DNA of 50,403 bases from Shigella phage Sfin-1, in the sequence record NC_047998.1; one strand, given 5' to 3'. Below are positions 7,088-23,764 of this stretch, piece by piece. The notes beneath the pieces are model-generated. The model made no database searches. It was not told the DNA's origin and saw only the letters and a program-made list of their open reading frames with translations. A program made the position numbers and the translations under genes. Every line of letters starts with the position of its first letter. Positions within the stretch are counted from its first letter, which is position 1.

Positions 7088-7230
7088 CTTCTTGCGCCTT
7101 AATCATAACGCCATCGATGCGACCAATAACAGCCTCTCCAGGATTTAACCGCTTTTTATAACGAGTTGTTTTGCCGTTGCGAGTTACTTTAATTTCGATT
7201 TTGACTGATTCGTCTTTGATATTTTGCATT
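7078..7230 (-). CDS. Hypothetical small protein (50 aa), below the ORF-track length cutoff
   Basis: ATG with AGAGGA RBS; stop overlaps the start of the next gene. Confidence 0.3.
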
Positions 7231-7393
7231 ATGCAATCCTCTTGAGTTTTTGCCGCTTACGGGTCTGCGGCGTTGCTTAACCACTATGCAACCGAGCTTT
7301 TTAGCTGGAAGTGTGAGAATCATCTCACGCGTTGCGCTTCTTTGCGCCTCGTCTGTCTACGGGATTAATACTATCACCGCTCAGCGATTCAGG

Positions 7394-7597
7394 TCAATCA
7401 TTAATTTCAAATTGGCCCTTAGCAATATCCTGCGGGTAGTCAATCTCATGAATATTTCCATCGTCTCCGTATACAAATACGAGTCTCTTTGCTTTACTTA
7501 CTTTTTCAACGTCATACAAGCATCCCGCTGAGAAAGCATCACCATTGCGTGATGTAACACATCGAACCTGATCGCCTTTCTTCGGTAAGTTAGCCAT
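7394..7597 (-). CDS. Hypothetical protein, member of a small paralogous domain family
   Basis: QVRCVTSRNGDAFSAGCLYDV...LVFVYGDDGNIHEI resembles the repeats in the 10627..11283 product. Confidence 0.5.
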   Translation of the reverse strand: MANLPKKGDQVRCVTSRNGDAFSAGCLYDVEKVSKAKRLVFVYGDDGNIHEIDYPQDIAKGQFEIND

Positions 7598-7827
7598 TAT
7601 TCGTAATCACCCTCTTTGTTACCTACGCGCCCTGCAATATATCCGGCGGTCCATACAAACTTGTAGCGGTCGATGAGTAGCTCAACCTTTTTGTGATGAG
7701 TTGAGATCACATCAATCATAATCTTTTCGTTTTTGCGATCTTCTTTCTTCATTCCGCTAACGAATTTATTCAATTCCTTCGCCGCGCGCTTTACCACGTT
7801 CCATTCCGCTTCACTTAAACCAAACAT
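7597..7827 (-). CDS. Hypothetical protein
   Basis: 76-aa ORF, start overlaps upstream stop. Confidence 0.45.
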   Translation of the reverse strand: MFGLSEAEWNVVKRAAKELNKFVSGMKKEDRKNEKIMIDVISTHHKKVELLIDRYKFVWTAGYIAGRVGNKEGDYE

Positions 7828-8171
7828 TATTTACCACTCCCGAATGAAAAGTTGACATTTAAAACCTGATTGCAAACTGATTCCATGTATCGCAACTGAT
7901 ATTGAGCAACCTTTGAAGGACTTAATTCATCAGAAAATAAGTCATCAACATTGATTTCTTTTTTATGCTTGCGCTTCCATGCCTTGATGATATTTGGCAG
8001 GATGCGCTCGCTCTTCCAGGCTGCAAACTCAGCTTGATTCGTTGAAACAGGAGTAAGTTGCTTTTCGATCTGGTTGAGCAACTCGGCAGTTGCTCCTTTT
8101 ACGTGCAATTGGTCGCCAATCGCATCAAGGATTTCACGAGCTTGCTTCTCTGATAGGTTAATCGTAATCAT
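7827..8171 (-). CDS. Hypothetical protein
   Basis: 114-aa ORF, start overlaps upstream stop. Confidence 0.45.
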   Translation of the reverse strand: MITINLSEKQAREILDAIGDQLHVKGATAELLNQIEKQLTPVSTNQAEFAAWKSERILPNIIKAWKRKHKKEINVDDLFSDELSPSKVAQYQLRYMESVCNQVLNVNFSFGSGK

Positions 8172-8377
8172 GCCTCTTCTCCTTCATCTTCGATCGGTGT
8201 AAAAAACTGAGTGTTCACTGCCGGGTTGTAATAAACTCCGTCATCATAGTCGCTTTCTTTCACTTCAATGAAAACGTCGCAACCGTCATGCATGAAATCA
8301 CCGTTATCAGTATGAACGAGTTCGAATACTTCAGAAGTTTTAGTGCAAGTGAAAAACTTATCAGTTGATACCATCAT
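8168..8377 (-). CDS. Hypothetical acidic protein
   Basis: 69-aa ORF, first gene downstream of the promoter cassette at 8410..8453. Confidence 0.45.
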   Translation of the reverse strand: MMVSTDKFFTCTKTSEVFELVHTDNGDFMHDGCDVFIEVKESDYDDGVYYNPAVNTQFFTPIEDEGEEA

Positions 8378-8409
8378 TTCGATTTTCTCTCTTCGTTGTC
8401 GATGAGGTA

Positions 8410-8453
8410 ACTATATCAAATCACCCCACCGACGTTTTAGCAATTCGTGCTAT
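8410..8453 (-). promoter_or_regulatory. Early promoter cassette (TAGCACGAATTGCTAAAAC dyad, 22-bp spacer, TGnTATAGT)
   Basis: Dyad TAGCA-N5-TGCTA; 22 bp to extended -10 TATAGT; the TAG of the dyad is the stop codon of the upstream kinase gene. Confidence 0.55.
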
Positions 8454-9022
8454 TTGTTGATGAACGTAGCGGCTATGTGCTGAGCGGTAATTTCTGGATG
8501 ACCTTCGACAGAGAAGAAATCACACTCCTGATAACCATTAACCCCGATCATATCTTCCAGGTAAATATAATCACGGCTGTCGTTGTCAAAGTTGCAGCCT
8601 TTGCGGTGTATTCGACATAGCTTGACCTGGATATCACCCTCAATCATCTGCAATACCTCATCTTTGAATCCACCATCAGTAAATACTGACAGAGAATATG
8701 ACTCTTTGACCTTGCTTTCCGCTCGCATACCGAAGAATCGATTTCCGAACTGTGGCTTGATGACTTCCTCGCTAATCCAGATCATAAACTGGCGCGGGCT
8801 TTTACCGTTCAGGATTGACGCTGGCTCTTCTTTGTAACGACGGTCCTCATACAAGAACATGAAATACTCGTAGTTAGTTTCACCCAGGATTGCCCGAGCA
8901 ATCTCAAACATTGGTGCTTTAAAGCTGCGCAAAGCTACATGATCGTAAGTGTCAGCCAGGATGCATCCGATAGTGTCCTTGCCTGCTCCAGGAGCGCCGT
9001 TTAAAATGATAGCTGTTTTCAT
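8450..9022 (-). CDS. P-loop nucleotide/nucleoside-monophosphate kinase (T4 Dnk-like)
   Basis: Walker A GAPGAGKDT and an LNGKSP motif that I recall from T4 gp1 dNMP kinase; AGGGAG RBS. Confidence 0.55.
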   Translation of the reverse strand: MKTAIILNGAPGAGKDTIGCILADTYDHVALRSFKAPMFEIARAILGETNYEYFMFLYEDRRYKEEPASILNGKSPRQFMIWISEEVIKPQFGNRFFGMRAESKVKESYSLSVFTDGGFKDEVLQMIEGDIQVKLCRIHRKGCNFDNDSRDYIYLEDMIGVNGYQECDFFSVEGHPEITAQHIAATFINK

Positions 9023-9023
9023 A

Positions 9024-9134
9024 TCAGTATCTCCCTAAAAATAATTTTGCCATATCGATAATAGTGTGATTGATGATTAGCAGGATGATAACCGTCAATA
9101 CCGGATGTGCTGCAATAAATTCGTATAGGTTCAT
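9024..9134 (-). CDS. Small single-pass membrane peptide (36 aa), translationally coupled to both neighbours
   Basis: ATGA overlap with the phosphatase stop; stop 1 nt before the kinase ATG; hydrophobic core VLTVIILLII. Confidence 0.35.
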   Translation of the reverse strand: MNLYEFIAAHPVLTVIILLIINHTIIDMAKLFLGRY

Positions 9135-9607
9135 TTCTCTACCCCGTGCGATTTTAAATGATCGTGAACGTTATCGCCATAGTCAACTACAGCATATGTT
9201 GTTATTCCAAGCGACCGGAATAATGGAATAATTTGCGGTGAGTCATCCCAAGCTGCCAGGATGTTTTCAATACCGATCGCTCGCACCGCTTCTTCTTTCA
9301 TCACCGTGTCTTTCCTGTTGTCTGTGTGCGGTCGCATGACTAAGTAATCATATCTCGCACCGTGATGCTTAAGCCATAACTCAGATGCGTAACGAACCTC
9401 ATCACTTCGCCCGGTTAAAACTATTACGTGATACCCGGCAGCAAACATAGAGTTCATAACCTCAATCGTGCTCTGGATTGGGTTATCAAATATTGCCGCT
9501 CGGTTAAACTCAGACCAGCTTTCAGTTAAGTGCAAATCCTTTGTCGGCAACAGGTGAAGGCGCTTTGATCCATCACTAAGCGTTCCGTCAAAGTCAAAGA
9601 TTGCCAC
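9131..9607 (-). CDS. HAD-superfamily phosphatase (putative nucleotidase or polynucleotide 3'-phosphatase)
   Basis: N-terminal DFDGTL (HAD motif I, DxDGT); GTG start. Confidence 0.6.
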   Translation of the reverse strand: MAIFDFDGTLSDGSKRLHLLPTKDLHLTESWSEFNRAAIFDNPIQSTIEVMNSMFAAGYHVIVLTGRSDEVRYASELWLKHHGARYDYLVMRPHTDNRKDTVMKEEAVRAIGIENILAAWDDSPQIIPLFRSLGITTYAVVDYGDNVHDHLKSHGVEK

Positions 9608-9703
9608 GCGTCGCGTGCCGAGAAACAGGTTGATAGTTTGACCCCAATGGTAATTTTATCCATGATTTATTCCTATGATTGGTTGCTTAACTCAACGAAG
9701 GGC

Positions 9704-9747
9704 ATTCTATCAAATGCCCTTGAGCAAGTTTTAGCAATTAGTGCTAT
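9704..9747 (-). promoter_or_regulatory. Early promoter cassette (dyad plus 22 bp plus TAGAAT)
   Basis: TAGCACTAATTGCTAAAAC followed after 22 bp by TGaTAGAAT; a GGGCATT/AATGCCC hairpin overlaps the -10. Confidence 0.5.
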
Positions 9748-10193
9748 TACCAGCAACTGATCTCGTATTCAGCCCAGCTATCAAACTCTTCCTGACTGAA
9801 TGAGCCGCCGTAATTGTCATGAATATCATCGATCAAAAAGTAGCACGACTCACCGTTACGATAGAAGTATGAATCAGCAACGTTACGCGCCCATGTTCCG
9901 GCGTCCTTCTTGCTCATCTTCCAGTATTTAATTGCAATCTTCTTGAATGCGCGAACTACGCGCTTGCGGATCTTGATATGCTTGTACCCCGCGTTGCAGC
10001 CGTAAGCCATATACTCATTGTTCCCGAGATTCTGCATGATGTACGGATTAACTTCTTTTGAAGCAATCATTAGATCGCCATCGCCTCGATGCGCATCATA
10101 AATGCTTGCTGTCATGTAGTGGCCTTTGAACATTCCAATGCCGTGCAGGGTGTGTTCATTGTTAGGTGTATCAATGCAAATCAAATGTTTCAT
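9747..10193 (-). CDS. Hypothetical protein (148 aa)
   Basis: Start moved to the internal ATG at 10193, which has a GAGGG RBS. Confidence 0.45.
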   Translation of the reverse strand: MKHLICIDTPNNEHTLHGIGMFKGHYMTASIYDAHRGDGDLMIASKEVNPYIMQNLGNNEYMAYGCNAGYKHIKIRKRVVRAFKKIAIKYWKMSKKDAGTWARNVADSYFYRNGESCYFLIDDIHDNYGGSFSQEEFDSWAEYEISCW

Positions 10194-10223
10194 GAGTGTT
10201 CCCTCGTTCGTTGGTGTAGGGGA

Positions 10224-10267
10224 ATCATATCGCATTCCCATTGATAGGTTTTAGCAATTCGTGCTAT
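10224..10267 (-). promoter_or_regulatory. Early promoter cassette (dyad plus 22 bp plus TATGAT)
   Basis: TAGCACGAATTGCTAAAAC, 22-bp spacer, TATGAT; GGGAAT/ATTCCC hairpin. Confidence 0.5.
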
Positions 10268-10469
10268 TCGTTTTAATAGTGATGCAAAAATAATTTTTTA
10301 AGCACGTCACCACGCGCGCTGAATCTACTTGTGGAAGCCTTAAAATTTCATGGACCAGTTGCACTGCCGACACGTCAAAATTGTAGTAGTGTGCGATTCT
10401 GGAGGTATTTGGGAGCATCCCTTCCACTGCGTCACGCGCTGCATCTTCCGCTGTCATGATAGTAGCCAT
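10251..10469 (-). CDS. Hypothetical protein (72 aa)
   Basis: AAGGG RBS; stop lies within the downstream promoter dyad. Confidence 0.35.
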   Translation of the reverse strand: MATIMTAEDAARDAVEGMLPNTSRIAHYYNFDVSAVQLVHEILRLPQVDSARVVTCLKNYFCITIKTNSTNC

Positions 10470-10576
10470 AAAACACCCTTAAGAGATAGAGTCAGAAACA
10501 GGAGGCAGAATAACAACTCATGAAATGATGGAGGTTCGTTTTTCCAGTTCTTAAAGTCAGGCATAAAGCTATTCAT
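10454..10576 (-). CDS. Possible small hydrophobic peptide (40 aa)
   Basis: GAGGTG RBS and ATG just downstream of a terminator-like hairpin; overlaps the next gene start out of frame. Confidence 0.2.
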   Translation of the reverse strand: MNSFMPDFKNWKNEPPSFHELLFCLLFLTLSLKGVLWLLS

Positions 10577-10584
10577 ATTCACCT

Positions 10585-10618
10585 CATAAAAATAGGGAAC
10601 CGCTCAGGAACGATTCCC
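10585..10618 (-). terminator. Putative terminator hairpin after the membrane-anchored tandem-domain gene
   Basis: GGGAA...TTCCC stem followed by a U-rich tract on the minus strand. Confidence 0.3.
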
Positions 10619-10626
10619 ACTTTAAG

Positions 10627-11283
10627 TTAAACTACGAAAAACAGCACGATAAGAGAAATAAGAAGCACGGTAGCCATAGCCAGGTTCGCCAGATTATCAA
10701 TGTCCTTGTTGGTCAGCTTAGGCTTGACTTTACCATCAACTTCGATTGGCTTAACGCTGTGAATCTTACCCTGTTCGATGCGGAAACCGCCCTTGATTCG
10801 ACTGGTATTAAATTTCTGCTTCTTCTTGCCGAACGTTGCAAACTTAGTGCCGCCACTATTCCAGCGAAGACCTTCGCCATTATGCGTTACGGTAGCAATG
10901 CGGTGACGGCCCGTGTCGTCAGTAAGCGCTACAGTGTGCTTTGCGTGCTCAGTAGGAACGTCGTAGATTTTGCCAACAGTAAATTTCTTGGTGTTATCAC
11001 TGATACATTCGAATTTCATAAATTTTACCTCTTTATTATGCAGTTGGTTGATTGCTTCGATTACGTCGTTAAATTTAACACCATCCACGATTCGATGGAA
11101 GATATATTTTGAACTACCGCCATACGGCAGGAAAATTTCTTGGTATTCGTGACGACGGATGATGTTCACATTGCTACCGTGCTCATCCACGACAACGAAG
11201 CTGTCGTTATTGACGCGAGCGCCTTCGTAGATTTTTCCCCACTTAAATCCCGTTCCGTCACTTGATACGCATTCAAATTTCAT
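10627..11283 (-). CDS. Membrane-anchored protein with two tandem copies of a small conserved domain and a C-terminal transmembrane helix
   Basis: Internal repeat MKFECVSSDGTGFKWGKIYEG / MKFECISDNTKKFTVGKIYDV; C-terminal hydrophobic tail LANLAMATVLLISLIVLFFVV. Confidence 0.55.
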   Translation of the reverse strand: MKFECVSSDGTGFKWGKIYEGARVNNDSFVVVDEHGSNVNIIRRHEYQEIFLPYGGSSKYIFHRIVDGVKFNDVIEAINQLHNKEVKFMKFECISDNTKKFTVGKIYDVPTEHAKHTVALTDDTGRHRIATVTHNGEGLRWNSGGTKFATFGKKKQKFNTSRIKGGFRIEQGKIHSVKPIEVDGKVKPKLTNKDIDNLANLAMATVLLISLIVLFFVV

Positions 11284-11567
11284 GGTCTAACCTTCCTGTA
11301 AGGTTTGATTGATAACATCACGTATTGCGTGAAGTCGCATTCCTGATCGTCATACCCGCGATTGATGTATGGCGTCACGTCTGTAACATCGGACACCCTG
11401 GCGTGAACTTCCCACCCGGTAAACTCGTCACGATCGAACTCGCATAGCTCCAGGATATCGCCAGGCTGGAAGTTGCGGTCATTGATGCGGAACTCTGCCG
11501 TTTTTGTTCCGTTCATTACTCCAATGAAATGTACCGGGGCGATTTTTAATTTATGAGTTTTGCTCAT
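11280..11567 (-). CDS. ASCH/PUA-like (DUF3850-type) small protein
   Basis: The ~95-aa sequence KLKIAPVHF...G.KTAEFRINDRNFQPGDILEL fits my recollection of the DUF3850/ASCH fold signature. Confidence 0.4.
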   Translation of the reverse strand: MSKTHKLKIAPVHFIGVMNGTKTAEFRINDRNFQPGDILELCEFDRDEFTGWEVHARVSDVTDVTPYINRGYDDQECDFTQYVMLSIKPYRKVRP

Positions 11568-11757
11568 CTTCCTTTACCTCGAATGTTACGTTCCAAAATT
11601 TATTGCCGCAAGAATGATAGGTTACGTCATGCGGCGTTAGTTCGTGCAATGCATGACCGATGATTTCCATGCGATCGTTCGGTGTCAGACCTCGAAGTGA
11701 TTCACGAAGGCGTGAAGCCTTGTCGTAAATCTGCCACTGCGTGAGTCGTGTAGCCAT
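11551..11757 (-). CDS. Hypothetical protein (68 aa)
   Basis: Start moved to the internal ATG at 11757, which has an AAGGA RBS. Confidence 0.35.
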   Translation of the reverse strand: MATRLTQWQIYDKASRLRESLRGLTPNDRMEIIGHALHELTPHDVTYHSCGNKFWNVTFEVKEDEQNS

Positions 11758-11885
11758 AGCTGATTCCTTATTTGCAAAACGGGCAGGTTGATTTATTTCC
11801 GCTGCCACCATGATTAGGGCAGCACACTTTCTCAATTGGTGTCATAGCTGATTCCTCTGATTGGTTGCCGTGCTTCAATAAGGCC

Positions 11886-11929
11886 ACTATATCAAATGGC
11901 CTTGCGGAAGGTTTAGCAATTCGTGCTAT
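11886..11929 (-). promoter_or_regulatory. Early promoter cassette (dyad plus 22 bp plus TGaTATAGT)
   Basis: TAGCACGAATTGCTAAACC, 22-bp spacer, extended -10; GGCCA/TGGCC hairpin. Confidence 0.55.
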
Positions 11930-12075
11930 CGTTTAACACACATTGTTTTTACTTCGTATCCGAACGGCTTGTTTTCTGCAATTACTTCCCGAGCCTTGTT
12001 ACATGCTTGCTGACTTTCCATGTATACGTGATCCGGCCCGGTACTCATCAAGATAATCAAGACCCATGCAGCCAT
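11926..12075 (-). CDS. Small membrane peptide (49 aa), below the ORF-track cutoff
   Basis: TAATG overlap with the upstream stop; GAGGTG RBS; hydrophobic N-terminus; its stop is the TAG of the promoter dyad. Confidence 0.3.
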   Translation of the reverse strand: MAAWVLIILMSTGPDHVYMESQQACNKAREVIAENKPFGYEVKTMCVKR

Positions 12076-12566
12076 TATTTCACCTCATAGCGTACAAGCG
12101 TTCCGCGCTTAATGCTGATTTCACCTGATACCGTCTTGTTCTTGAAGCCGCCGTGATGCAATAGAAGCGTGATGATATCGTCGTGCACCTCAATAGTTTT
12201 TGGTGTCGCGGTAATCTCAACCCAAGAATCGCTGCTAATCTGGACACCTTTTAGCGTTGCGCTAAGTGGCATATTCTCGATCTGAGTGCACTGTAGCGAT
12301 GGCTTGATTTCTGGCTTTGATTCATGAAAGATGGCCCGACCAACTTTCCAACCAGGCCCGGCACTCTCAACATAATACGGAAGAGACGGGATGTTATCAG
12401 GATTGTGATTGTTATGAAGCTCAATGAGATTACCAACAATCGACGGGTGACACTCATTGAATGACGAATCAGTTGCACGATCTTTGCTGTGGCAGGTTAT
12501 TTTACCGCAGCTAATAGTGTTAAAAACTACAGGGAATTTAATCTCGTTTAATTTCAACATAATCAT
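12075..12566 (-). CDS. Hypothetical protein (163 aa)
   Basis: Long ORF with no recognisable motif. Confidence 0.45.
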   Translation of the reverse strand: MIMLKLNEIKFPVVFNTISCGKITCHSKDRATDSSFNECHPSIVGNLIELHNNHNPDNIPSLPYYVESAGPGWKVGRAIFHESKPEIKPSLQCTQIENMPLSATLKGVQISSDSWVEITATPKTIEVHDDIITLLLHHGGFKNKTVSGEISIKRGTLVRYEVK

Positions 12567-12590
12567 TTCCTCTTGGTGGTCGATGTGGGG

Positions 12591-12634
12591 ATTGTACCAG
12601 TCAGGACGAATCCCCTTTTAACAATTCGTGCTTA
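12591..12634 (-). promoter_or_regulatory. Early promoter cassette (variant dyad TAAGCACGAATTGTTAAAAG plus 22 bp plus TACAAT)
   Basis: Same architecture; GGGGATT/AATCCCC hairpin; dyad contains the TAA stop of the upstream gene. Confidence 0.5.
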
Positions 12635-13120
12635 GTAGACTAGCTCACACTCAATATCGAACGGCTCGGAGTCTCGATGGAAGAAGCAAAGCGGCTCTTT
12701 GTTCATCCCGCCTACAAAACCAACGGCGCGAAGCTGCTCATCATTAATGTAAGCAAGGCTTGCGGTAATTTCCTCAAAGTCCACAATAACTGGGAACGTG
12801 CGATTCTCATAACCAGGGCGCATCGGGTAGCCGCCATTGTTGAGAAGTCGAACCTTGCGAGGCTTGACGATCGCTTGAACTTCCCATTCAAAGAAGAACA
12901 TCGTTCCGTCCTTCTCGTTGAAGTCAGCCGGGCCAAATACCGGACTAACCGATAGGCCGTAATCGAGATCGTACACACCAGCTTTAACCAGGTCATCTAC
13001 TTTGACGCGGTAGCCGCCAATGCTATCATTGCACTTCACGGCGTCAACGATAATAGGGTCAGATTCCAGGTCGCGAGTAAAGCCCTTGTAACCGCCAGTG
13101 CAAAGTAATTTAATTTTCAT
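12632..13120 (-). CDS. Hypothetical protein (~162 aa)
   Basis: Start moved to the ATG at 13120, which has a GAGGA RBS. Confidence 0.45.
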   Translation of the reverse strand: MKIKLLCTGGYKGFTRDLESDPIIVDAVKCNDSIGGYRVKVDDLVKAGVYDLDYGLSVSPVFGPADFNEKDGTMFFFEWEVQAIVKPRKVRLLNNGGYPMRPGYENRTFPVIVDFEEITASLAYINDEQLRAVGFVGGMNKEPLCFFHRDSEPFDIECELVY

Positions 13121-13131
13121 GATTTCAATCC

Positions 13132-13338
13132 TCATTGTTCACGTTTAAATTTAGCCACCACATCGCCATTGCGCTTAGTTGCTGTTAGCGCTTTCTTGTC
13201 AAAGTAGAACCACGTATACACTCCATGAACCACATCAATAACCTCTCCGCTTTTGTTTGTAAAGCTATCGATTTGAGCGACATATTCGAAGCCTTCTGAG
13301 TAGTTAATTTGATTTGATTCAATGCACCGCAGTTTCAT
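13132..13338 (-). CDS. Hypothetical small protein (68 aa), possible member of the paralogous domain family
   Basis: Starts MKLRCIES; ATG at 13338 with GAGGA RBS. Confidence 0.45.
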   Translation of the reverse strand: MKLRCIESNQINYSEGFEYVAQIDSFTNKSGEVIDVVHGVYTWFYFDKKALTATKRNGDVVAKFKREQ

Positions 13339-13368
13339 GATAAATCCTCGTTCGTTATCGATGGGGTT

Positions 13369-13412
13369 ACTATATCGCAACCCCGGAATTGAGTTTTAAC
13401 AAAAAGTGCTAT
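13369..13412 (-). promoter_or_regulatory. Early promoter cassette (dyad variant TAGCACTTTTTGTTAAAAC plus 22 bp plus cgaTATAGT)
   Basis: Same spacing; GGGGTT/AACCCC hairpin. Confidence 0.5.
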
Positions 13413-13600
13413 TCTTTAATTTCGAAGCAATCAGTATCTTCGTCGAATACCCAGGGGTCGCCATTATCATCAAGCAATGAGACGTTACCGAAGCTGGTTA
13501 GCGACGCACTATAAGGCTTGTCAACGGTAAAGCACTCTTTCACTTCCTGGTCCTCACTACCTTTGAATACTGCAATCATTTGGTGCATAAAATCAGCCAT
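13409..13600 (-). CDS. Hypothetical small acidic protein (63 aa)
   Basis: Acidic ORF immediately after a promoter cassette. Confidence 0.4.
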   Translation of the reverse strand: MADFMHQMIAVFKGSEDQEVKECFTVDKPYSASLTSFGNVSLLDDNGDPWVFDEDTDCFEIKE

Positions 13601-13609
13601 TGTTAAATC

Positions 13610-13786
13610 CTATTCGCAAGTGATCTCATTTGATGTGATTGGTAGCAAAACATTGCCAACCATCACGAAAGTAGTAACCTGGTTCCCGGTTTCATGGCAT
13701 CGCTCTTTGACCTCGCCACAGCCGGACACTACCAGGATAGCCAGGGCGACCGCCGCCATCATGCAAATCAGAATGCGCATCATTCG
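13610..13786 (-). CDS. Putative small lipoprotein (58 aa)
   Basis: MMRILICMMAAVALAILVVSGC: signal peptide with a lipobox-like VSGC; ATGA-coupled to the upstream small membrane ORF. Confidence 0.35.
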   Translation of the reverse strand, partial: RMMRILICMMAAVALAILVVSGCGEVKERCHETGNQVTTFVMVGNVLLPITSNEITCE

Positions 13787-13890
13787 AACGCCCCCGCACA
13801 CAGGAGAAGCATTACCACGATGCCGACCATAACGTGACCCATGCAGAAGAACCAGACGGCAGACCATAGCGCTACTGTATTAAAGTTCAT
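13780..13890 (-). CDS. Small hydrophobic membrane peptide (36 aa)
   Basis: ATGA overlap with the upstream gene stop; almost entirely hydrophobic (VALWSAVWFFCMGHVMVGIVVMLLLCAGAF). Confidence 0.3.
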   Translation of the reverse strand: MNFNTVALWSAVWFFCMGHVMVGIVVMLLLCAGAFE

Positions 13891-14114
13891 TTTAGTACCT
13901 CGATCTTGTTGTCGCCGATTGAGTTTTCTACTACTGATTGCGGATCGTCTCCAGGTACGCGCATGTAAAAATTACTCACCGCCGTGAAGTTCCATTGACC
14001 GCGCCACTTGAAATATAATCCGTGCTTTGCGCCTTTCGCGCAGTGAGTAGATTTAGCCGGGATCATGTGCCCGTTGACGCGGATTAGTTTGGTTAGGTTG
14101 CTGTAACGTGGCAT
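13887..14114 (-). CDS. Hypothetical protein (75 aa)
   Basis: ORF in the coupled array. Confidence 0.45.
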   Translation of the reverse strand: MPRYSNLTKLIRVNGHMIPAKSTHCAKGAKHGLYFKWRGQWNFTAVSNFYMRVPGDDPQSVVENSIGDNKIEVLK

Positions 14115-14120
14115 AATTAT

Positions 14121-14351
14121 TTATTCCTCAATTAAAGTACTGATATCATCACGACCTTGAAACTCGCCATTCCATACCAAGAAGTTTGCAAGGTTTTCGC
14201 AGCGCACCCACTTTCCGTTATTTTCCATGTATGTTTTGTACCCACCCGGTACGGCCCTGACAGCAAATCGCTTGTTGTCGCGAGTGATGAAAATAGCAAA
14301 GCGGTTGTGGCTGGTTGAGTCGATGGCTTGTTGGTTCTTGATGATTGACAT
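14121..14351 (-). CDS. Hypothetical protein (76 aa)
   Basis: ORF directly downstream of a promoter cassette. Confidence 0.45.
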   Translation of the reverse strand: MSIIKNQQAIDSTSHNRFAIFITRDNKRFAVRAVPGGYKTYMENNGKWVRCENLANFLVWNGEFQGRDDISTLIEE

Positions 14352-14389
14352 GGCGAATCCTCTGATTGGTATCTCGTTTTGATGGGGTA

Positions 14390-14433
14390 ACTATAGCAAG
14401 ATACCCCGATCCGGTTTTAACAATTCGTGCTAT
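14390..14433 (-). promoter_or_regulatory. Early promoter cassette (TAGCACGAATTGTTAAAAC plus 22 bp plus TGcTATAGT)
   Basis: Same architecture; GGGGTA/TACCCC hairpin. Confidence 0.55.
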
Positions 14434-14900
14434 TTGGTGAGATACTTTACCTCACTGCCGGAAATCATATTCCAACCATCATCAAAGAATACGCTATAGC
14501 ATGTTGCCGAGCGATGGCGAATCTTGGATACAGTGCGCCACACCTTACGGCCCGAGTAACCAGTCAGCACACGCATCCCTGGCGATAGCTCACCCGACTT
14601 TCTCACCTTAATGCTCACGTCAGAGTCAAGATCGAACGACCCCAGGCGAACCGGATTGACCATCTCAAACATTCTCATAACTTCGTGATCTTCTTTCCCC
14701 TCGCAGCCACCGCTAGCCTTAACCGCTTCAACAAAATCACTCAGCTTGTCAGTGAGTAAATCGCCATCGTAAGCCTCAATTGAGATGACCGTGTAATGAG
14801 TGTACGTGTGCCAGTGCGATCCGGTTTTGTGCTCGAACGCGAAGAATGACATTTCGCCATCAATCTCATCTTTAGCCAGGAATACGGTAATGGTTGTCAT
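14430..14900 (-). CDS. Hypothetical protein (156 aa)
   Basis: Long ORF with no recognisable motif. Confidence 0.45.
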   Translation of the reverse strand: MTTITVFLAKDEIDGEMSFFAFEHKTGSHWHTYTHYTVISIEAYDGDLLTDKLSDFVEAVKASGGCEGKEDHEVMRMFEMVNPVRLGSFDLDSDVSIKVRKSGELSPGMRVLTGYSGRKVWRTVSKIRHRSATCYSVFFDDGWNMISGSEVKYLTK

Positions 14901-14902
14901 GA

Positions 14903-15097
14903 TTATGCCTCAGCAAAGTAAGTGTTAAAGCCCTTGAGTTTGTAGTCGCTACCTACGCGCACCACGTTCCAGGTAAGGCCAGAGTGATATGCAACCATAT
15001 CTTCAAGGTCGATCGTGATTTCGGTTCCTTTCTTGAACAGACCCTTTTCATGAGTTGAGTCGCGCTGAACAACAACCACATCAATTTGCGTTTCCAT
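14903..15097 (-). CDS. Hypothetical small protein (64 aa)
   Basis: Start moved to the ATG at 15097, which has a GAGGA RBS. Confidence 0.4.
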   Translation of the reverse strand: METQIDVVVVQRDSTHEKGLFKKGTEITIDLEDMVAYHSGLTWNVVRVGSDYKLKGFNTYFAEA

Positions 15098-15129
15098 CTT
15101 CGTTTCCTCTGTATCGTGTCGATGAAAAG

Positions 15130-15173
15130 ATAATACCCGATCCGCTCGACCGGGCTTTAACAAAAAGTGCTAT
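15130..15173 (-). promoter_or_regulatory. Early promoter cassette (TAGCACTTTTTGTTAAAGC plus 22 bp plus TATTAT)
   Basis: Same architecture; CCCGGTCGAGCGGATCGGG hairpin. Confidence 0.5.
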
Positions 15174-15187
15174 TTCACCTATCAGAG

Positions 15188-15703
15188 TTACAGTCCACAC
15201 TTTTCAATATGTGCTTTCATCTGGCGCACGATCTCATTCACATCGCGAACCATTAACTCGCTATCGGATAGCTTGCTAACATCAACATCAAACGAATCCA
15301 GGCAGTCGGCCAGGCTAACTTTTTTCCGGCTACGGCGTTTCTTCACCGGAACCTCTTCGTCTGTAACGATAACGGTTATCATCGTGATTGCCGCGTCATT
15401 CCGGCCTACCTTCACCTTTGCCACCTTGCCGTACTTGCAAAAGTGGCGGGTAATGATCGGAGTAATGAAAGCAGACTTGAATCGCCTCTCTACCTCAGCT
15501 TGGTTCTGGTTCACCCATCCGGTAGCGCCTCGCTCCACCTCATCATCTGAAATATCCTGATCTCGGAAGTAAAATTTTACCGCCTCTCTCGCCATATCAT
15601 CAGCCACGAAAGAGAACTCGGTCATGCCTTTGTCGCGGTACATTGCATCGCAGGTTAGTCGAATCATGTCGGTGATTTTTAATTCCTGATTGGTATTGCT
15701 CAT
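15188..15703 (-). CDS. Hypothetical protein (171 aa), first gene of the leftward early array
   Basis: GAGGATGG RBS; lies immediately next to the divergent control region. Confidence 0.45.
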   Translation of the reverse strand: MSNTNQELKITDMIRLTCDAMYRDKGMTEFSFVADDMAREAVKFYFRDQDISDDEVERGATGWVNQNQAEVERRFKSAFITPIITRHFCKYGKVAKVKVGRNDAAITMITVIVTDEEVPVKKRRSRKKVSLADCLDSFDVDVSKLSDSELMVRDVNEIVRQMKAHIEKCGL

Positions 15704-16145
15704 AATCCATCCTCATTTGTCTATTGATGTGTAAATGGTGTCATAACATGTCAACAATTGCCATTGTGACAGCGCAATGCAGGGCTGTCAATGCCTGCGA
15801 GCCAATTTTAAGCTGTGTAACATTTGTCTAGCTGTCTAGAGTCCCCATAGAAATATATGACTCTCAAAAAAGTACTGTATATATAAACATGCAGATAGAA
15901 ATATGCCAACAGTACGCTAGACAATGTAAGACGGCTATACACAACTATTACAATATAATTATCTATATATATAAATATAAAAAAAACACTATATATATTA
16001 TATATATACATATATCCATATGTCTATTGTGGGGCGTCACAGTGCGTAATTTTGTCACAAGTGCGATTCTAGACAAATATTACAGTCGTGACAAGTTAAG
16101 GTGTAATCGATAGCACGTTTTGCTAAAAATGGAGATGACCACCAG
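15704..16145. promoter_or_regulatory. Divergent early control region A: TA-rich tract and six TGTCTA half-sites (four direct, two inverted)
   Basis: Non-coding strand-switch region; TGTCTA at 15719, 15825, 15834, 16021 and TAGACA at 15918, 16067; about 60-bp (TA)n-like tract at 15955..16015; degenerate promoter dyad at 16111..16128. Confidence 0.55.
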
Positions 16146-16390
16146 GTGAACCGGGTAACACTAAATCCTCCCTCTCACAATCATTGCATTCCAAGCAACA
16201 ATCACATCAACAGTTGCACACCATGCAACAATCACATTTCATCATTCGAGATCAATTGGGATCGCAATTATTCCAGATATTCCATTGCTGGTGGAATAAT
16301 GAGCAACTATTGGAATAGCATTTTTTGCAACATATCAGCCCTGCCGATAGGGTATGATTCATCTCATCAACCAATCATAGGAATCACGCA

Positions 16391-16603
16391 ATGGAACCAA
16401 AATTTGAATGTGCCGTGCAATGCATTAGCGTTAGCACCGACAGCTTCACGAATCAATCAGTGTATGAGATCTACCTTATTGATGGTGGGTACTTCGCTAC
16501 TGACAATCAGCAAAATCAGATCGGCGTTTTCCGTTCAATGAATGGATGGGATCGCTTCCTTACCAATAACGGGCAGACGGTATTCAAAGAGGTAACGAAA
16601 TGA
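16391..16603 (+). CDS. Hypothetical protein (70 aa)
   Basis: AGGA RBS; ATGA-coupled to the downstream methyltransferase. Confidence 0.4.
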   Translation: MEPKFECAVQCISVSTDSFTNQSVYEIYLIDGGYFATDNQQNQIGVFRSMNGWDRFLTNNGQTVFKEVTK

Positions 16604-17304
16604 AATTAATCTGGTCGCTATTTGACGGTTCCGGTCTTGCTGGTCATGAACTGGCTAAGCAAGGTCACAAGGTGATGTGCTTCAACTTTGACGGAGCAGA
16701 TCACGGAGATTACGAAAAGTATAACGCCAGGGTTGAGCATCCGAACATTGAGTATGTGAACGTCTTTATTGATGAGAAGTTCGAACGTGACGCGATCTCG
16801 GGAGTGTATGGCAAGCCGGATTTTATTATGGCCTTCCCTCCTTGCACTGACCTGGCTGTTAGTGGCGCTAGTCACTTTGCAAGAAAGCGTGAGCGTGATC
16901 CGTTATTCCAGGAGAAGGCTGTCGCCACCGCCCGGATTGCCGCGAACATTGGAGATAGCCTTGGCGTGACTTACATCATTGAGAATCCGGTGAGCGTCCT
17001 GTCGTCTGCGTGGAGAAAACCAAATCACTCCTTCAATCCCTGGGAGTATGGCGGCTATCTTCCTGAGAATGACTCACACCCCTGGTTCCCGATGTATATT
17101 GCGCCGCGCGATGCTTACCCGAAGAAAACTTGTCTTTGGACCTCTGACGATTTTGTCATGCCCGAGAGAAAACCTGTAAGCCTACCTGACGGGTACTCTG
17201 CACAGCACAGTAAGCTAGGCGGCAAGTCCGCAAAGACTAAGCTGATACGCTCCCTGTCGCCCAGGGGATTTTTTAAAGCGATCGCGGATAGCACTTTTTG
17301 TTAA
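16600..17304 (+). CDS. Putative DNA (cytosine-5) methyltransferase
   Basis: Motif I-like LFDGSG, PC dipeptide (PPCTD) as candidate catalytic Cys, ENV-like IIENP; short for the family. Confidence 0.45.
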   Translation: MKLIWSLFDGSGLAGHELAKQGHKVMCFNFDGADHGDYEKYNARVEHPNIEYVNVFIDEKFERDAISGVYGKPDFIMAFPPCTDLAVSGASHFARKRERDPLFQEKAVATARIAANIGDSLGVTYIIENPVSVLSSAWRKPNHSFNPWEYGGYLPENDSHPWFPMYIAPRDAYPKKTCLWTSDDFVMPERKPVSLPDGYSAQHSKLGGKSAKTKLIRSLSPRGFFKAIADSTFC

Positions 17305-17331
17305 AACTCGATCGGTGTGATTTGGCATAAT
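17289..17331 (+). promoter_or_regulatory. Early promoter cassette (TAGCACTTTTTGTTAAAAC plus 22 bp plus CATAAT)
   Basis: Dyad overlaps the stop of the methyltransferase gene. Confidence 0.45.
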
Positions 17332-17369
17332 TACCTCATCGAAACGAGATACACATCAGGAGCAAGAAA

Positions 17370-17705
17370 ATGAAATACGAAAATCGCGGTAACGAAATCA
17401 TCAAAATCGAAAACGGCGTTGAGTACATCATGGTTGCTTGCAAGGTTAACGGAATGGACTCCTTCGTTTGGGAAGAAATCAAAACTGAAGACAAGGCAGT
17501 TAAATTCCTGACCTGTGTTAACCAGCCCGACATGGATCGCGACACATTCACTCGTTACGGTAAATATGAAATCGTTCGCGAGACTGCTTGCTTCTGGTGG
17601 GTGATGCCTAACAGCCAGTACAAATTCCCGCGCAAAATCAGTAAGCGCACCATGCGTGAAGCTGGCATCAAAGAAGCATACGCCGCTGAGTTCGATATTG
17701 CTTAA
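17370..17705 (+). CDS. Hypothetical protein (111 aa)
   Basis: AGGAG RBS. Confidence 0.45.
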   Translation: MKYENRGNEIIKIENGVEYIMVACKVNGMDSFVWEEIKTEDKAVKFLTCVNQPDMDRDTFTRYGKYEIVRETACFWWVMPNSQYKFPRKISKRTMREAGIKEAYAAEFDIA

Positions 17706-17748
17706 TAGCACGAATTGCTAAACGCCCAGAGCGAGATCGGGGTGTAGT
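17705..17748 (+). promoter_or_regulatory. Early promoter cassette (TAGCACGAATTGCTAAACG, weaker -10 TGTAGT)
   Basis: Starts directly after the TAA stop; 22-bp spacer. Confidence 0.4.
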
Positions 17749-17778
17749 GAATAAATCAACAAATCAGAGGATTAAATT

Positions 17779-17940
17779 ATGATCGTATATTGCGTAGTGG
17801 GAACTATCTACTATGAAGGTGATGAACTGATCGAGATATGCTCAACTGAAAGAAAGGCTAACGAGATCAAGAATCTTACTGAGAATGACAGAACCAACTT
17901 CTTTGATGAGATCAAGATTGTTCAAAAAGAGGTTATCTAA
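17779..17940 (+). CDS. Hypothetical small protein (53 aa), below the ORF-track cutoff
   Basis: AGAGGA RBS; exactly fills the gap between two promoter cassettes. Confidence 0.4.
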   Translation: MIVYCVVGTIYYEGDELIEICSTERKANEIKNLTENDRTNFFDEIKIVQKEVI

Positions 17941-17983
17941 TAGCACTTTTTGTTAAACGCGCATCAGGGATGGCTGGTATAGT
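17941..17983 (+). promoter_or_regulatory. Early promoter cassette (TAGCACTTTTTGTTAAACG plus 22 bp plus TATAGT)
   Basis: Spacing verified; GGATGGCT...TCATCC hairpin. Confidence 0.55.
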
Positions 17984-18014
17984 CATCCCATCAACAGCAA
18001 ATGAGGAAAGAATC

Positions 18015-18386
18015 ATGTTTAAGCAATTCATAAACCTGGACTTCTCAGCAAGCACAGCAATCCAGACTGACGAGAAAGAGAGCGTAGCGATCGAGAACAT
18101 TGCGCGCAAGATTTACAACAAGCAAGAGAAGGCGGTGAGAGCCGCTCTAAGCGCTTATTACGGTGTAAGTGATGCAATGGAGTGCGTGAACCGAGTAACC
18201 CGCGCCGTTGACCATTTAGGCGTGTCTCGTTTCATTGATAATGATACTGGAGAGACAATAATCCAGCTTAACAATCCATCAATGCGGACCGAGCTTGGCA
18301 ATATTGCATTATGGGGTGTGGCTAACTATTCAATCACCGTGAACTCCTGCATTGCGGGCCGTGTTAAGGAAGCATTGTATGAGTGA
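18015..18386 (+). CDS. Hypothetical protein (123 aa)
   Basis: Start at the ATG with GAGGA RBS. Confidence 0.45.
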   Translation: MFKQFINLDFSASTAIQTDEKESVAIENIARKIYNKQEKAVRAALSAYYGVSDAMECVNRVTRAVDHLGVSRFIDNDTGETIIQLNNPSMRTELGNIALWGVANYSITVNSCIAGRVKEALYE

Positions 18387-18579
18387 TAATATTTACCGCG
18401 TAGTGGCGATCTCACGCAAGACACAGAAGAGCGTGATCGCTTACATGGGCAGTAGCGCCATTGAAGCTACGGACGCATTCGAATTATTGAAGAACAACGA
18501 GGGGTTTATGAACACGTTCCGCGTTCGACTTGAGCGCCTCGAACCTGTTATCATTGATGAAGCGAGAAAGCTATCCTGA
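18379..18579 (+). CDS. Hypothetical protein (66 aa)
   Basis: AAGGA RBS; start overlaps the upstream stop. Confidence 0.4.
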   Translation: MSDNIYRVVAISRKTQKSVIAYMGSSAIEATDAFELLKNNEGFMNTFRVRLERLEPVIIDEARKLS

Positions 18580-18595
18580 CTGGTTAGGGGGAATA

Positions 18596-18949
18596 ATGAA
18601 CCACACTTACAAGATCACAACGAAGTCACCGAAGATTAACGGAAGCACGGTTGCGGCACTGAATAACGCGGCGGCAATTCACGAAAAAAATATCATGGAG
18701 CGCGTGAAGGCAGCGGTAGGTAGATTCTACGGGATCAACGCTGACATTGCCGACAGCAAGCGACTTTTCAAATACGTGCCAGGTCATCCATATAGCAGGA
18801 TGATTGATATCAAGCATGAAAAAGAATTGGTTCGAATCGGATCTCTCAGCATTGATGAGTTCGACCATAGCATCAACCTGGTGACGGCGTATCAAACTTG
18901 GGACGGTAAAAATGATTTACATTCACACTTTCTATACTGGCAAATTTAA
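18596..18949 (+). CDS. Hypothetical protein (117 aa)
   Basis: AGGGGG RBS. Confidence 0.45.
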   Translation: MNHTYKITTKSPKINGSTVAALNNAAAIHEKNIMERVKAAVGRFYGINADIADSKRLFKYVPGHPYSRMIDIKHEKELVRIGSLSIDEFDHSINLVTAYQTWDGKNDLHSHFLYWQI

Positions 18950-19055
18950 CAGCGTAAAAAATGTTCGCGTTTACGATAGCCATCAAAAAGCAATGATGCA
19001 GAAAGTAGTTCTAGGTGGCACAATCAAAGAGTGCAAAGTAATTTCTGAGTACTGA
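18912..19055 (+). CDS. Possible small protein (47 aa)
   Basis: ORF ends 1 nt before the next promoter dyad; weak RBS; overlaps the upstream gene 3' end. Confidence 0.25.
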   Translation: MIYIHTFYTGKFNSVKNVRVYDSHQKAMMQKVVLGGTIKECKVISEY

Positions 19056-19099
19056 TAGCACGAATAGCTAAAGACGACAAACCGGGAGTAAGGTATATT
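19056..19099 (+). promoter_or_regulatory. Early promoter cassette (TAGCACGAATAGCTAAAGA, about 23 bp, TATATT)
   Basis: GGGAGTAA/TTACTCCC hairpin around the -10. Confidence 0.45.
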
Positions 19100-19132
19100 A
19101 CTCCCACACCAAACGAAACGAAGGAATTAAAA

Positions 19133-19357
19133 ATGAGCATTAAAGTTGAGAATATCATCAAGCATTTGAACGCAAAAGGCCGTGTAGTTATCAAGATGGA
19201 TAAGTCTTCAGGTTTTATTTCAATGACAGTGACTAAGACGCGTAACGGAAATAGCGTAATCGGAAGAACCCCAGGTTCTCGCTTGATAAATGCAACAGAT
19301 GCTGATGTGCGCGCTACGCTTGAGGCCAACTCAATTTACATTAATTCATGGAGTTAA
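19133..19357 (+). CDS. Hypothetical protein (74 aa)
   Basis: GAAGGA RBS. Confidence 0.45.
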   Translation: MSIKVENIIKHLNAKGRVVIKMDKSSGFISMTVTKTRNGNSVIGRTPGSRLINATDADVRATLEANSIYINSWS

Positions 19358-19570
19358 TTGATGGAACGGGATAATTTCTGGACTCGTTATTTTGCCGCTC
19401 TTGATGCCGGGCTTAGTGCGGAATGGTGTATCAAGGTTGCATATAAAGAAATCACACTTGAGGACGCGCTAGGGAATATGGATATGGACGCAGAAAGCGA
19501 ATATAATCCAGACTTCGAGTTACCTGGCGATGATATTGATGAGGACGACGACGATTATATTCCCTGGTAA
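19358..19570 (+). CDS. Hypothetical acidic protein with SSB-like C-terminal tail (DDDDYIPW)
   Basis: C-terminus resembles the acidic tip (DDDIPF) of the SSB encoded at 32910..33323. Confidence 0.45.
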   Translation: MMERDNFWTRYFAALDAGLSAEWCIKVAYKEITLEDALGNMDMDAESEYNPDFELPGDDIDEDDDDYIPW

Positions 19571-19572
19571 AT

Positions 19573-19624
19573 AGCACGATTTGTTAATATTGCCGTAAGG
19601 TCATTTGATAAAGTGACCTTATTC
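19573..19624 (+). promoter_or_regulatory. Early promoter cassette (TAGCACGATTTGTTAATAT plus TGaTAAAGT)
   Basis: GGTCA...TGACC hairpin. Confidence 0.45.
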
Positions 19625-19650
19625 AAGATAACCAATCAGGAGTTAATGCG

Positions 19651-20067
19651 ATGAAATCAATCAAACTGAAATGTACTTACGCCGATAAAATCACAGGATT
19701 TGAAGTTAACAACCTATACAAAGGTCGAGAGCGTTTCGATGGCACTCGCGAAGTAAAATTAAAATGCGGGAAGTATTTAAAACTTGAAAAGCATGATGAA
19801 TTACAGATTCACGGATCTGATGAAATCTTCTTCGCGAAGTTCACTGAGTTGAAAACAAAGACGCTCAAGTGCACCGGGCTTGACCATCGCAACCCAATGA
19901 AAAAATCATTCAAAGTTGGCAAGCGTTACCAGGTTGAAAGCGGTCGCGCTCTCGGTGGCGTAGCTGGTTACATCTTTGATGAAGATGGTTGTCGCTGGAC
20001 CTTATTTCGCGAAGAGGTTGGTTTTAGTATCGCAGACGGCACAACCTTTGAGGCCAAATACTTATAA
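19651..20067 (+). CDS. Hypothetical protein (138 aa) with two internal repeats related to the paralogous small-domain family
   Basis: IKLKCTYADKITGFEVNNLYKG and TLKCTGLDHRNPMKKSFKVGKRYQV. Confidence 0.45.
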   Translation: MKSIKLKCTYADKITGFEVNNLYKGRERFDGTREVKLKCGKYLKLEKHDELQIHGSDEIFFAKFTELKTKTLKCTGLDHRNPMKKSFKVGKRYQVESGRALGGVAGYIFDEDGCRWTLFREEVGFSIADGTTFEAKYL

Positions 20068-20072
20068 CCAAT

Positions 20073-20113
20073 AGCACTTTTTGCAAAACGCGTGTACCAT
20101 TGGCGGTGTATCA
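20073..20113 (+). promoter_or_regulatory. Early promoter cassette (TAGCACTTTTTGCAAAACG plus 22 bp plus TATCAT)
   Basis: GGTGTA...TACACC hairpin. Confidence 0.5.
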
Positions 20114-20143
20114 TTTACACCGTCAACTAAGGAGTTTATTGTG

Positions 20144-21712
20144 ATGTTTAATATTAAGCCAAAACTGAATTACCAACAGATTATTGAGATCGCCAATAGT
20201 ACTGGAGTTAATCCGGTGGCGATCGCAATTCGTGAAAACAGCTATGGTGACTCAGTTTCATTTTGGCAAGATCCGATCGATATCAATAGCGGCAACGATA
20301 AGTTCCCTCTGATTTCGTTAGGTGGCGATAACCTGGTATTCGAATATGCAAAAGCAAAGGCCGAGTCTGTACAGTTCCCTGTTTCGTCTGCGTACGCTCA
20401 TTTCATTGGGTGCATCTCAGCCGCGATGCTCGGGAAGTTTTGGGTGCAATATCACGGAGAAGAACAACCAACCGCTCTTTACATGGTAATCAGCCAGCCA
20501 CCGTCAACAGGTAAATCTGCGATTAACTCCGCAGCGATTACGCCTATGCGCGCAGAGATTCAGCGACTGAATGAAGAGCGAAAAAAGGAACGTATCCGTT
20601 TAACCAGTCAGCTACGCCAGGTCGAGAAGGAAATTAAAAACGACCCGAAGGGTAACACGACGGCAGCGCTATACGAGGACAAAGAAAAACTGGAAGAGAA
20701 AATCAAGAAGATGGCTGATATTGTTTTCGCGGTATCAGATCCTACACCAGAAGGTCTAGCGAAAGTAGCTGCTGTTCAAGGTCATTTCTCCGTAATCTCT
20801 GATGAGGCGACAGCAATCAATACATTGCTCGGCCTGACTTATGGTGGTTCAGACAAGAAATCAAATAGTGAGCTTATCCTTAAGGCGTGGGATAAAAACC
20901 ATATGGAGGTAGCGCGTTCCAACCAGGATAACAACTTGTCCCTTTGCCCGGTCGGTTCCATCTGCGTTATTGCGCAGGATGAAACAATCAAGGGTATCAT
21001 GGACGCAGGCCAACGAGGCATCGGCGTATCTGAGCGCTTCCTTCTTGTTCGTGAGGAACCTCTTTTAGGTACTCGTATCCTTTGCGATGAAAATGGTGAT
21101 GCACTGTATAAGGAAGTCGATCGAGGATTGGTGAGTAAATATTATCGACTCGTGCACAACATTATGAAGGAGGAAAACGTTGTTCTTTCTGTAAGTCGTA
21201 ATGCTATGCGTGAATTAAACCTTGCGCGTCAGGCGATGGAGCCGGATTTCGCCGCAGGTGGGAAATACTCTCACTCAATGCTACGCGGTCATCTCGGAAA
21301 GTTCGATAAGCACGCCTTGCGTATTGCTTCAGTTCTCCACACGATCAAGAATTGGGAGGGTGAATCACCGAACCGTTCCAACCGTGAGATTGACCTTGAA
21401 ACGATGCAGGAAGCAATCATGATCTTCAATGAGCTTTCCAGGACTTATCTGTCGTCTGCCAGCGCTGCCGGGTATGCTGGTGATGAGGCTGAATCTCGTA
21501 AGCTGATTGATGTTATCACTGAGATCGCAAAGAAGAATAAAGGGCGCGCTCCTATTCATAGCATCGTTGCAAAGTGCCGGAACGTTACTCCGTTCAACGG
21601 TCAACAGAAAGTATCTGAGAGAATAGATAGCCTGCTGATCACGCTCGAAGAGATGAACTACACTTGCCGCATTGATGATATTGTTTTCATCAATCCTCGA
21701 CTGATGGGTTAA
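20144..21712 (+). CDS. Large P-loop protein (putative replication-associated ATPase, DUF3987-like)
   Basis: Walker A-like QPPSTGKSA; start at the ATG with AAGGAG RBS; largest early gene. Confidence 0.4.
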   Translation: MFNIKPKLNYQQIIEIANSTGVNPVAIAIRENSYGDSVSFWQDPIDINSGNDKFPLISLGGDNLVFEYAKAKAESVQFPVSSAYAHFIGCISAAMLGKFWVQYHGEEQPTALYMVISQPPSTGKSAINSAAITPMRAEIQRLNEERKKERIRLTSQLRQVEKEIKNDPKGNTTAALYEDKEKLEEKIKKMADIVFAVSDPTPEGLAKVAAVQGHFSVISDEATAINTLLGLTYGGSDKKSNSELILKAWDKNHMEVARSNQDNNLSLCPVGSICVIAQDETIKGIMDAGQRGIGVSERFLLVREEPLLGTRILCDENGDALYKEVDRGLVSKYYRLVHNIMKEENVVLSVSRNAMRELNLARQAMEPDFAAGGKYSHSMLRGHLGKFDKHALRIASVLHTIKNWEGESPNRSNREIDLETMQEAIMIFNELSRTYLSSASAAGYAGDEAESRKLIDVITEIAKKNKGRAPIHSIVAKCRNVTPFNGQQKVSERIDSLLITLEEMNYTCRIDDIVFINPRLMG

Positions 21713-23646: not shown

Positions 23647-23764
23647 AATATCACCATATATTTTTTGAACAAGTGAGTTGATTTTAACCTTCAAATTTAC
23701 TTGATACAACGCAAAAGGGCCAGCATGTAAACCATGCCAGCCCGTAAGGTTATGAATGATATTG

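Follow-up and report, generated by a model that had tools for sequence, protein, structure and literature searches.

The window analysed here, 50,403 bp, is the complete genome of Shigella phage Sfin-1, a T1-like siphophage (Drexlerviridae, Tunavirus), and sequence comparison indicates that it encodes a true paralogous family: nine copies of an all-beta unit of ~55-70 residues, carried by seven small genes that we call A to F and H (Table 1). The unit is a six-stranded SH3-like barrel, and we hold with high confidence that the family and the fold are both real. A sequence-only reading of this DNA had pointed to a motif recurring in four open reading frames (ORFs), A to D, all of which exist and are annotated as coding sequences for a "hypothetical protein" in the record of Shigella phage Sfin-6. 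It had also proposed that the phage expanded one small fold into several early proteins; such an expansion, among proteins encoded in the small-gene blocks, is borne out by profile comparison with hhalign and a superfamily profile. The units that it listed belong to the family, A being the weakest of them, while its list and coordinates were too narrow, missing E, F and H.

Pairwise BLASTP of the ORFs against the window's own ORFs gave E values of 0.1-4, none of them significant, and family profiles were therefore built. Alignments were made for 40 small genes of the window, drawing on 64 related loci from public phage collections together with homologues of B and D; E and H are ORFs that were added to the comparison once the same motif had been noticed in them. 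With B and D split into units (B1, B2, D1 and D2), this gave 43 family profiles, low in diversity (effective number of sequences, Neff, 1-2.6), and 903 pairwise hhalign comparisons with a Bonferroni limit of 5.5e-5. B1-B2 headed all 903 with P=3.4e-9 (39 aligned columns, 36% identity); B2-H (P=3e-6), B1-D1 (P=2.7e-5) and D1-H (P=4.1e-5) also passed the limit. The next tier (C-D1, B2-D2, B2-D1, B2-C, B1-C and B1-E) lay at P 2-5e-4, and the head of this unbiased all-against-all ranking consisted almost throughout of the proposed units. The similarity first noticed by eye thus stands at the level of profile-profile alignment, with P down to 3.4e-9, and does not at the level of pairwise BLASTP. 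The motif itself, written as [KRQ]-x-[KER]-C-[VIT]-x(4-14)-[FY]-x-x-[GN]-x-x-Y, a pattern defined post hoc, occurs six times in 329 six-frame ORFs of at least 40 aa, against 0.01 expected from shuffled sequences (maximum of one in 300 shuffles).

Iterative searches and a superfamily profile led to the same set of units. An iterative search of 12.5k six-frame ORFs with a hidden Markov model (HMM) seeded with B2 ended, at convergence, with B1, B2, D1 and A, and the only remaining window ORFs that it matched, at E values up to 10, were H, C and D2. When the superfamily profile was compared with the 43 families, H (P=3.6e-7), C (P=1.2e-6, with C not part of the profile), A (P=2.5e-6), F (P=4e-5), D2 (P=7.2e-5) and E (P=2.3e-4) were recovered. 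The best of the 33 control families reached P=0.034, as a uniform null predicts, and all nine units outscored every control. C is additionally secured by matches to phrog_9122, its own family in the PHROG collection: B2 matches that family at 8e-5, and a distant member, at 10844-11038 of related locus L039, is matched by the B profile at 9.5e-9. An E-seeded iteration took in B1 merely via a whole-sequence inclusion rule, and E was therefore judged by hhalign instead. Look-alike N-termini (g12632, "MKIKLLCTGG"; g8168; g9747) and C-termini (g21717 and g14430) had no profile support and were dropped.

The least secure member is A. It entered the B-seeded HMM at E=7.7e-5 while the profile lacked A, and the round-1 profile matches the A family at 5.8e-4; when A and H-like sequences were removed from the profile, H kept P=3e-6 and A fell to 0.0016-0.0019. 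This bears on the alternative that homology extends only to a core of B1, B2, D1, H and C, with A, D2, E and F sharing a beta-hairpin-like motif by convergence or chance. The leave-out value of A (P=0.0019), the 7e-5 to 3e-4 reached by D2, E and F, the low profile diversity and the lack of significant pairwise BLASTP matches all speak for it. Against it, A, D2, E and F all outrank the 33 controls (best P 0.03), their alignments are in the same register over 21-42 columns, and D2 is modelled as a barrel with a predicted local distance difference test score (pLDDT) above 85. PHROG families also cross-match between the two groups: phrog_14592 is matched by F, D2, B1 and B2, and phrog_10169 and phrog_4927 link A with B2, the latter being the family of A itself and matched by B2 at 0.021. 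On balance we regard a family restricted to the core as improbable.

AlphaFold2 structure models were made for B and D. The D model is all-beta with two barrels (pLDDT 93.3; predicted template modelling score, pTM, 0.84). That of B is moderate (pLDDT 64 overall, 77-88 in B1) and shows two six-strand barrels of identical strand spacing joined by a helix. Positions conserved among the units map to predicted strands and turns: h-K-h-K-C-h in strand 1 (where h is hydrophobic), with its Cys; F-x-x-G-K-x-Y in strand 2, of which F-x-x-G-x-x-Y is most general; h-x-h-x-D-D-x-G in strand 3 and the turn that follows; and G-x(2-4)-F-x-x-h in the C-terminal strand. A Foldseek search with the D model, the structural check that the sequence-only reading had suggested, returned from BFVD many Drexlerviridae proteins of 56-95 residues, two of which are annotated DUF7244 (probability 1.0, TM-score 0.65-0.73).

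DUF7244 (PF23896, SH3 clan) is also where the sequence evidence leads. H is a full member, scoring 97.5 bits against a gathering threshold of 27, while none of A, B1, B2, C, D1, D2, E and F exceeds 14 bits; over the whole ORFs, B (13.7 bits) and D (14.1 bits) stay below the cutoff and A and C have no match, so that Pfam and NCBIfam searches with A to D return sub-threshold DUF7244 matches or nothing. Among 109 members of the D family, 11 match DUF7244, the best at E=1.1e-5, still under threshold. Remote homology was detected directly by hhalign against the H family for B2 (3e-6) and D1 (4.1e-5), and A, C, D2, E and F are tied to DUF7244 indirectly, through the superfamily profile. Searching PDB sequences with the D-family profile gave no match up to E=10.

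Table 1. Positions of the barrel genes, their units and the Gp54 homologue in the Sfin-1 window
Feature	Position	Strand	Description
A	7394-7597	-	67 aa, single barrel; T1 homologue ST58
B	10627-11283	-	218 aa: B1, helix, B2, basic disordered linker, C-terminal transmembrane helix (predicted tail anchor)
B1	11086-11283	-	residues 1-66 of B
B2	10822-11019	-	residues 89-154 of B
Transmembrane helix of B (predicted)	10633-10710	-	residues 192-217
C	13132-13338	-	68 aa, single barrel; phrog_9122
F	13409-13600	-	63 aa, acidic, single barrel; absent from the earlier list
Gp54 homologue	14903-15097	-	Pfam PF25180; fold-level relative of the units
E	16391-16603	+	70 aa, single barrel; opens the rightward block; absent from the earlier list
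D	19651-20067	+	138 aa, two barrels; directly upstream of the DNA helicase gene
D1	19651-19854	+	residues 1-68 of D
D2	19855-20064	+	residues 69-138 of D
H	23765-23941	-	58 aa, standalone DUF7244/SH3 clan; T1 homologue ST14; outside 7394-20067

The description of B as a tandem duplicate with a C-terminal anchor is supported. Besides the B1-B2 profile match, the two units have in common two 14-nucleotide (nt) DNA repeats, in register and 264 nt apart. AlphaFold2 predicts a helix at the C-terminus, the hydrophobic character of which is kept in all full-length homologues, and the preceding stretch (residues 151-189) has pLDDT <50 and is predicted to be disordered. Linker and tail together carry a charge of +5.8. 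With a tail anchor and a basic juxtamembrane linker, the barrels should by the positive-inside rule be cytoplasmic.

The number and arrangement of units vary among relatives, as had been anticipated. Over bases 7000-21000, the window shares 99.9% identity with Shigella phages Sfin-6 and Sfin-2, and its identity to many Escherichia and Shigella tunaviruses is ~88-92%. T1 has five units (A, B2, D1, D2 and H), compared with nine plus a Gp54 homologue in Sfin-1, and is without B1, C, E, F and Gp54. Its B homologue, ST68, has B2 as its sole unit, giving one barrel plus the anchor; a remnant of the linker between the units survives in an upstream extension of the ORF, which argues that B1 was lost in T1. 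B has two units in 52 of the 66 phage records with a B homologue. An ASCH/DUF3850 gene for an "RNA-binding protein" at 11280-11567 (- strand) shares 4 nt with the start of B; this gene, g11551 and B1 are all missing from T1 and were apparently gained or lost as one block.

A third tandem-unit architecture is found in a vB_SsoS_008-like phage (IMGVR_UViG_2974611450, 4553-5020 of locus L029), where F and C are joined in one two-unit ORF of 155 aa through a local sequence replacement in which the stop codon of F is lost and the reading frame restored. At 8555-9283 of another locus, L045, a single ORF combines a PNKP phosphatase (HAD_PNKP, residues 26-167) with a C-terminal F-like unit (residues 198-239), and additional members in other Drexlerviridae bear C-terminal extensions of unknown function. 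The range of the D family is narrow: an exhaustive D-profile search of 1.84 billion representative proteins yielded only 27 clusters and so connected it to no other family. Standalone D2 and X-D2 forms are among its members. The representative search also returned P0156 (117 aa), an exact tandem D2-D2, the identical halves of which may reflect circular-contig assembly rather than duplication. The family grew by within-gene duplication (B1-B2, D1-D2 and the F-C of a relative) and dispersal, and units are gained and lost quickly between close relatives.

A to F lie in two divergent small-gene blocks that start at an AT-rich region at ~15.8-16.1 kb. This region (15760-16100) holds the best sigma-70-like sites of our scan, with 11/12 and 10/12 matches on the minus strand, and a terminator-like hairpin closes the leftward block ahead of the terminase genes (terS); overall, the promoter and terminator scan showed no enrichment over shuffled sequences. 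This arrangement is circumstantial evidence that the genes may be early, as the sequence-only reading had proposed. In T1, the AT-rich region is where the physical genome ends and the terminal repeat lie, which indicates that the window is circularly permuted relative to T1. A literature search on the timing of Drexlerviridae expression found nothing usable.

Within the leftward block, the product of 14903-15097 belongs to PF25180, the "phage antiviral trigger protein Gp54" family (122.7 bits, E=5e-36), and matches PDB 9axb at E=1e-13. Gp54 of phage Bas11 is sensed by direct binding to CapRelSJ46, a fused toxin-antitoxin, is non-essential to the phage, and was described as a barrel of "very rare" topology; its discoverers speculate that it may inhibit another defence, and even close homologues from other phages fail to activate CapRelSJ46 (Zhang et al., 2024, PMC11578894). 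Where Bas11 has G24-I25 at the escape and specificity positions, the Sfin-1 homologue reads G24-T25. The modelled barrels of B and D have the six-stranded small-barrel fold of Gp54(Bas11) (PDB 9AXB). At the sequence level no link was found: A to H have no match to PF25180 at E <=1, and Gp54 is without the conserved Cys of the units and has no detectable sequence similarity to them (P=0.056-0.47). Gp54 is thus a relative by fold alone, and on the models its Sfin-1 homologue is a tenth, fold-level member.

What might these barrels do? The best explanation as a whole, which we consider moderately probable, is a real barrel family serving as cytoplasmic, protein-binding accessory modules. The units, which have no signal peptide, would act in the cytoplasm and would probably be small protein-protein interaction modules, with core residues kept and surfaces diverged towards different partners, whether host, defence or phage proteins. 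B would tether a pair of them to the inner side of the membrane, and the roles would be accessory (host modulation or counter-defence) rather than essential. This reading of the units as binders was drawn from the binding of a protein by Gp54, from the precedent of Nip, a protein of tandem SH3-like domains, and from the location in accessory small-gene blocks. The net charge of the units runs from -11 (F) to +4 (B2 and D1) and their isoelectric points (pI) from 4.1 to 9.5, and this divergence of surface charge was counted in its favour. Taken by itself, the more specific claim that the modules bind proteins in accessory host-interaction or counter-defence roles, which leans on analogy, is tentative. 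For the host-takeover or anti-defence role that the sequence-only reading had suggested, the one functional anchor is structural, namely the Gp54 fold of the B and D barrels.

Several observations weigh against this explanation. The unit genes are under purifying selection (ratio of nonsynonymous to synonymous polymorphism, pN/pS, 0.01-0.38; 0.12 for A), which speaks for their being real genes; within the genus, orthologues show none of the diversifying selection that would mark an arms race. The basic units B2, D1 and D2 (pI >=9) would fit nucleic-acid binding too. In a scan of domains fused to units in relatives, the PNKP phosphatase alone was recognisable as a functional clue. For A, E, D2 and F, the profiles behind the similarity are low in diversity and the P values lie at 1e-3 to 1e-5. 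Finally, Gp54, on which the analogy draws, gave P=0.47 against the superfamily profile and P=0.056 with a deeper, 47-sequence Gp54 profile.

That the barrels bind nucleic acid, like Sm, KOW, Tudor or cold-shock-type SH3-like folds, and would modulate transcription, translation or RNA repair of host or phage, is the alternative to which the basic units point. Since F (charge -11), E and A, like the Gp54 homologue, are acidic, Gp54, the sole characterised structural relative, binds a protein, and searches of Pfam and NCBIfam turned up no family that binds nucleic acids, we give it a low probability, similar to that of the restricted core. Less probable again is that the units are SH3b-type, cell-wall-binding lysis auxiliaries, the role put forward earlier for the DUF7244 gene that precedes the holin. 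H does lie in that position, between the DNA-repair exonuclease and holin genes (the holin ORF is 23431-23709), H-like genes lie directly upstream of the holin in distant relatives too, and the DUF7244-holin linkage is reported in 188 Drexlerviridae genomes (PMC13164509). H-like genes beside a deoxynucleoside monophosphate (dNMP) kinase in distant phages were tried as an exception to this linkage and rejected, the kinase itself adjoining the holin there. Adjacency to the holin cassette is seen for H only, A to F being at 7.4-20 kb. By inspection of the sequences, neither A to F nor H has an N-terminal hydrophobic signal segment, and no unit is fused to an endolysin, so that neither the export nor the hydrolase fusion looked for in SH3b domains was found. 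That a short motif recurs in small ORFs by chance, with no family behind it, would fit a motif recognised by eye and BLASTP E values of 0.1-4, and is made very improbable by profile-profile P values down to 3e-9 that pass Bonferroni correction, a gap of two orders of magnitude to the control families, six motif occurrences for 0.01 expected, and independent AlphaFold2 models of B and D that converge on the same rare fold.

A bolder picture could be drawn, in which Gp54 would be one member of a fast-evolving, multi-copy scaffold family, with at least ten copies in the window and with tandem, membrane-tethered and enzyme-fused forms, from which T1-like phages draw a repertoire of small binders of host defence or housekeeping proteins. 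We consider this unlikely as it stands; were it true, other paralogues would inhibit or trigger additional immune systems, and the "lysis-module SH3" would be no more than one paralogue among them.

The fold families DUF7244 and Gp54 are already known and curated. Earlier papers treat them separately, Gp54 as a rare-fold orphan and CapRelSJ46 trigger and DUF7244 as a lysis-associated SH3 protein; our analysis connects both to further barrel units of the same genome, the link running through sequence for DUF7244 and solely through predicted fold for Gp54. DUF7244 is the "standalone SH3" of the Drexlerviridae lysis module, and the SH3 gene was reported "exclusively" near that module in a study using the DUF7244 HMM at E <=1e-5 (Eremina et al., 2026, PMC13164509), a search that missed the A to F paralogues. 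H is a full DUF7244 member in the described exonuclease-holin position; A to F, in contrast, are not beside lysis genes and include tandem and membrane-anchored architectures. Function is thus not to be read from lysis-cassette neighbourhood alone. Unlike canonical SH3 and SH3b domains, which have five strands, the units have six, no proline-peptide or peptidoglycan-binding signature was seen in them (no search aimed at one was made), and the proteins, putatively cytoplasmic, lack catalytic partners. Nip of Bacillus phage phi3T is a counter-defence protein with two SH3-like domains that binds a host immunity protein (PMC11984713). As a phage accessory protein of tandem SH3-like domains, it may serve as a functional analogy for B and D, from which it differs in being sequence-unrelated, in having an HU-like dimerisation domain and in coming from a temperate phage of a Gram-positive host. 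Our literature search found no report of A, B1, B2, C, D1, D2, E and F as divergent members of a family, of the DUF7244 and Gp54 folds meeting in one expanded family, or of the tandem, anchored and fused architectures. With these genes, a classic model phage group gains a concrete set of testable candidates for host interaction, and the one-barrel B of T1 compared with the two-barrel B, together with the F-C fusion, are natural variants for dissecting Gp54-like barrels.

Further small genes of the window were noted in passing. The products of 18015-18386 (+) and 18596-18949 (+), neither of which matches Pfam, gave P=0.0013 over 76 columns by hhalign and could be a second paralogue pair; the pair was not confirmed, as it fails multiple-test correction and has a BLASTP E value of 0.34. 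Two other small genes belong to the same block as A, B, C and F: 7827-8171 (-), the product of which matches DUF7180 (E=7e-32), and 13887-14114 (-), matching DUF7274 (E=8e-38).

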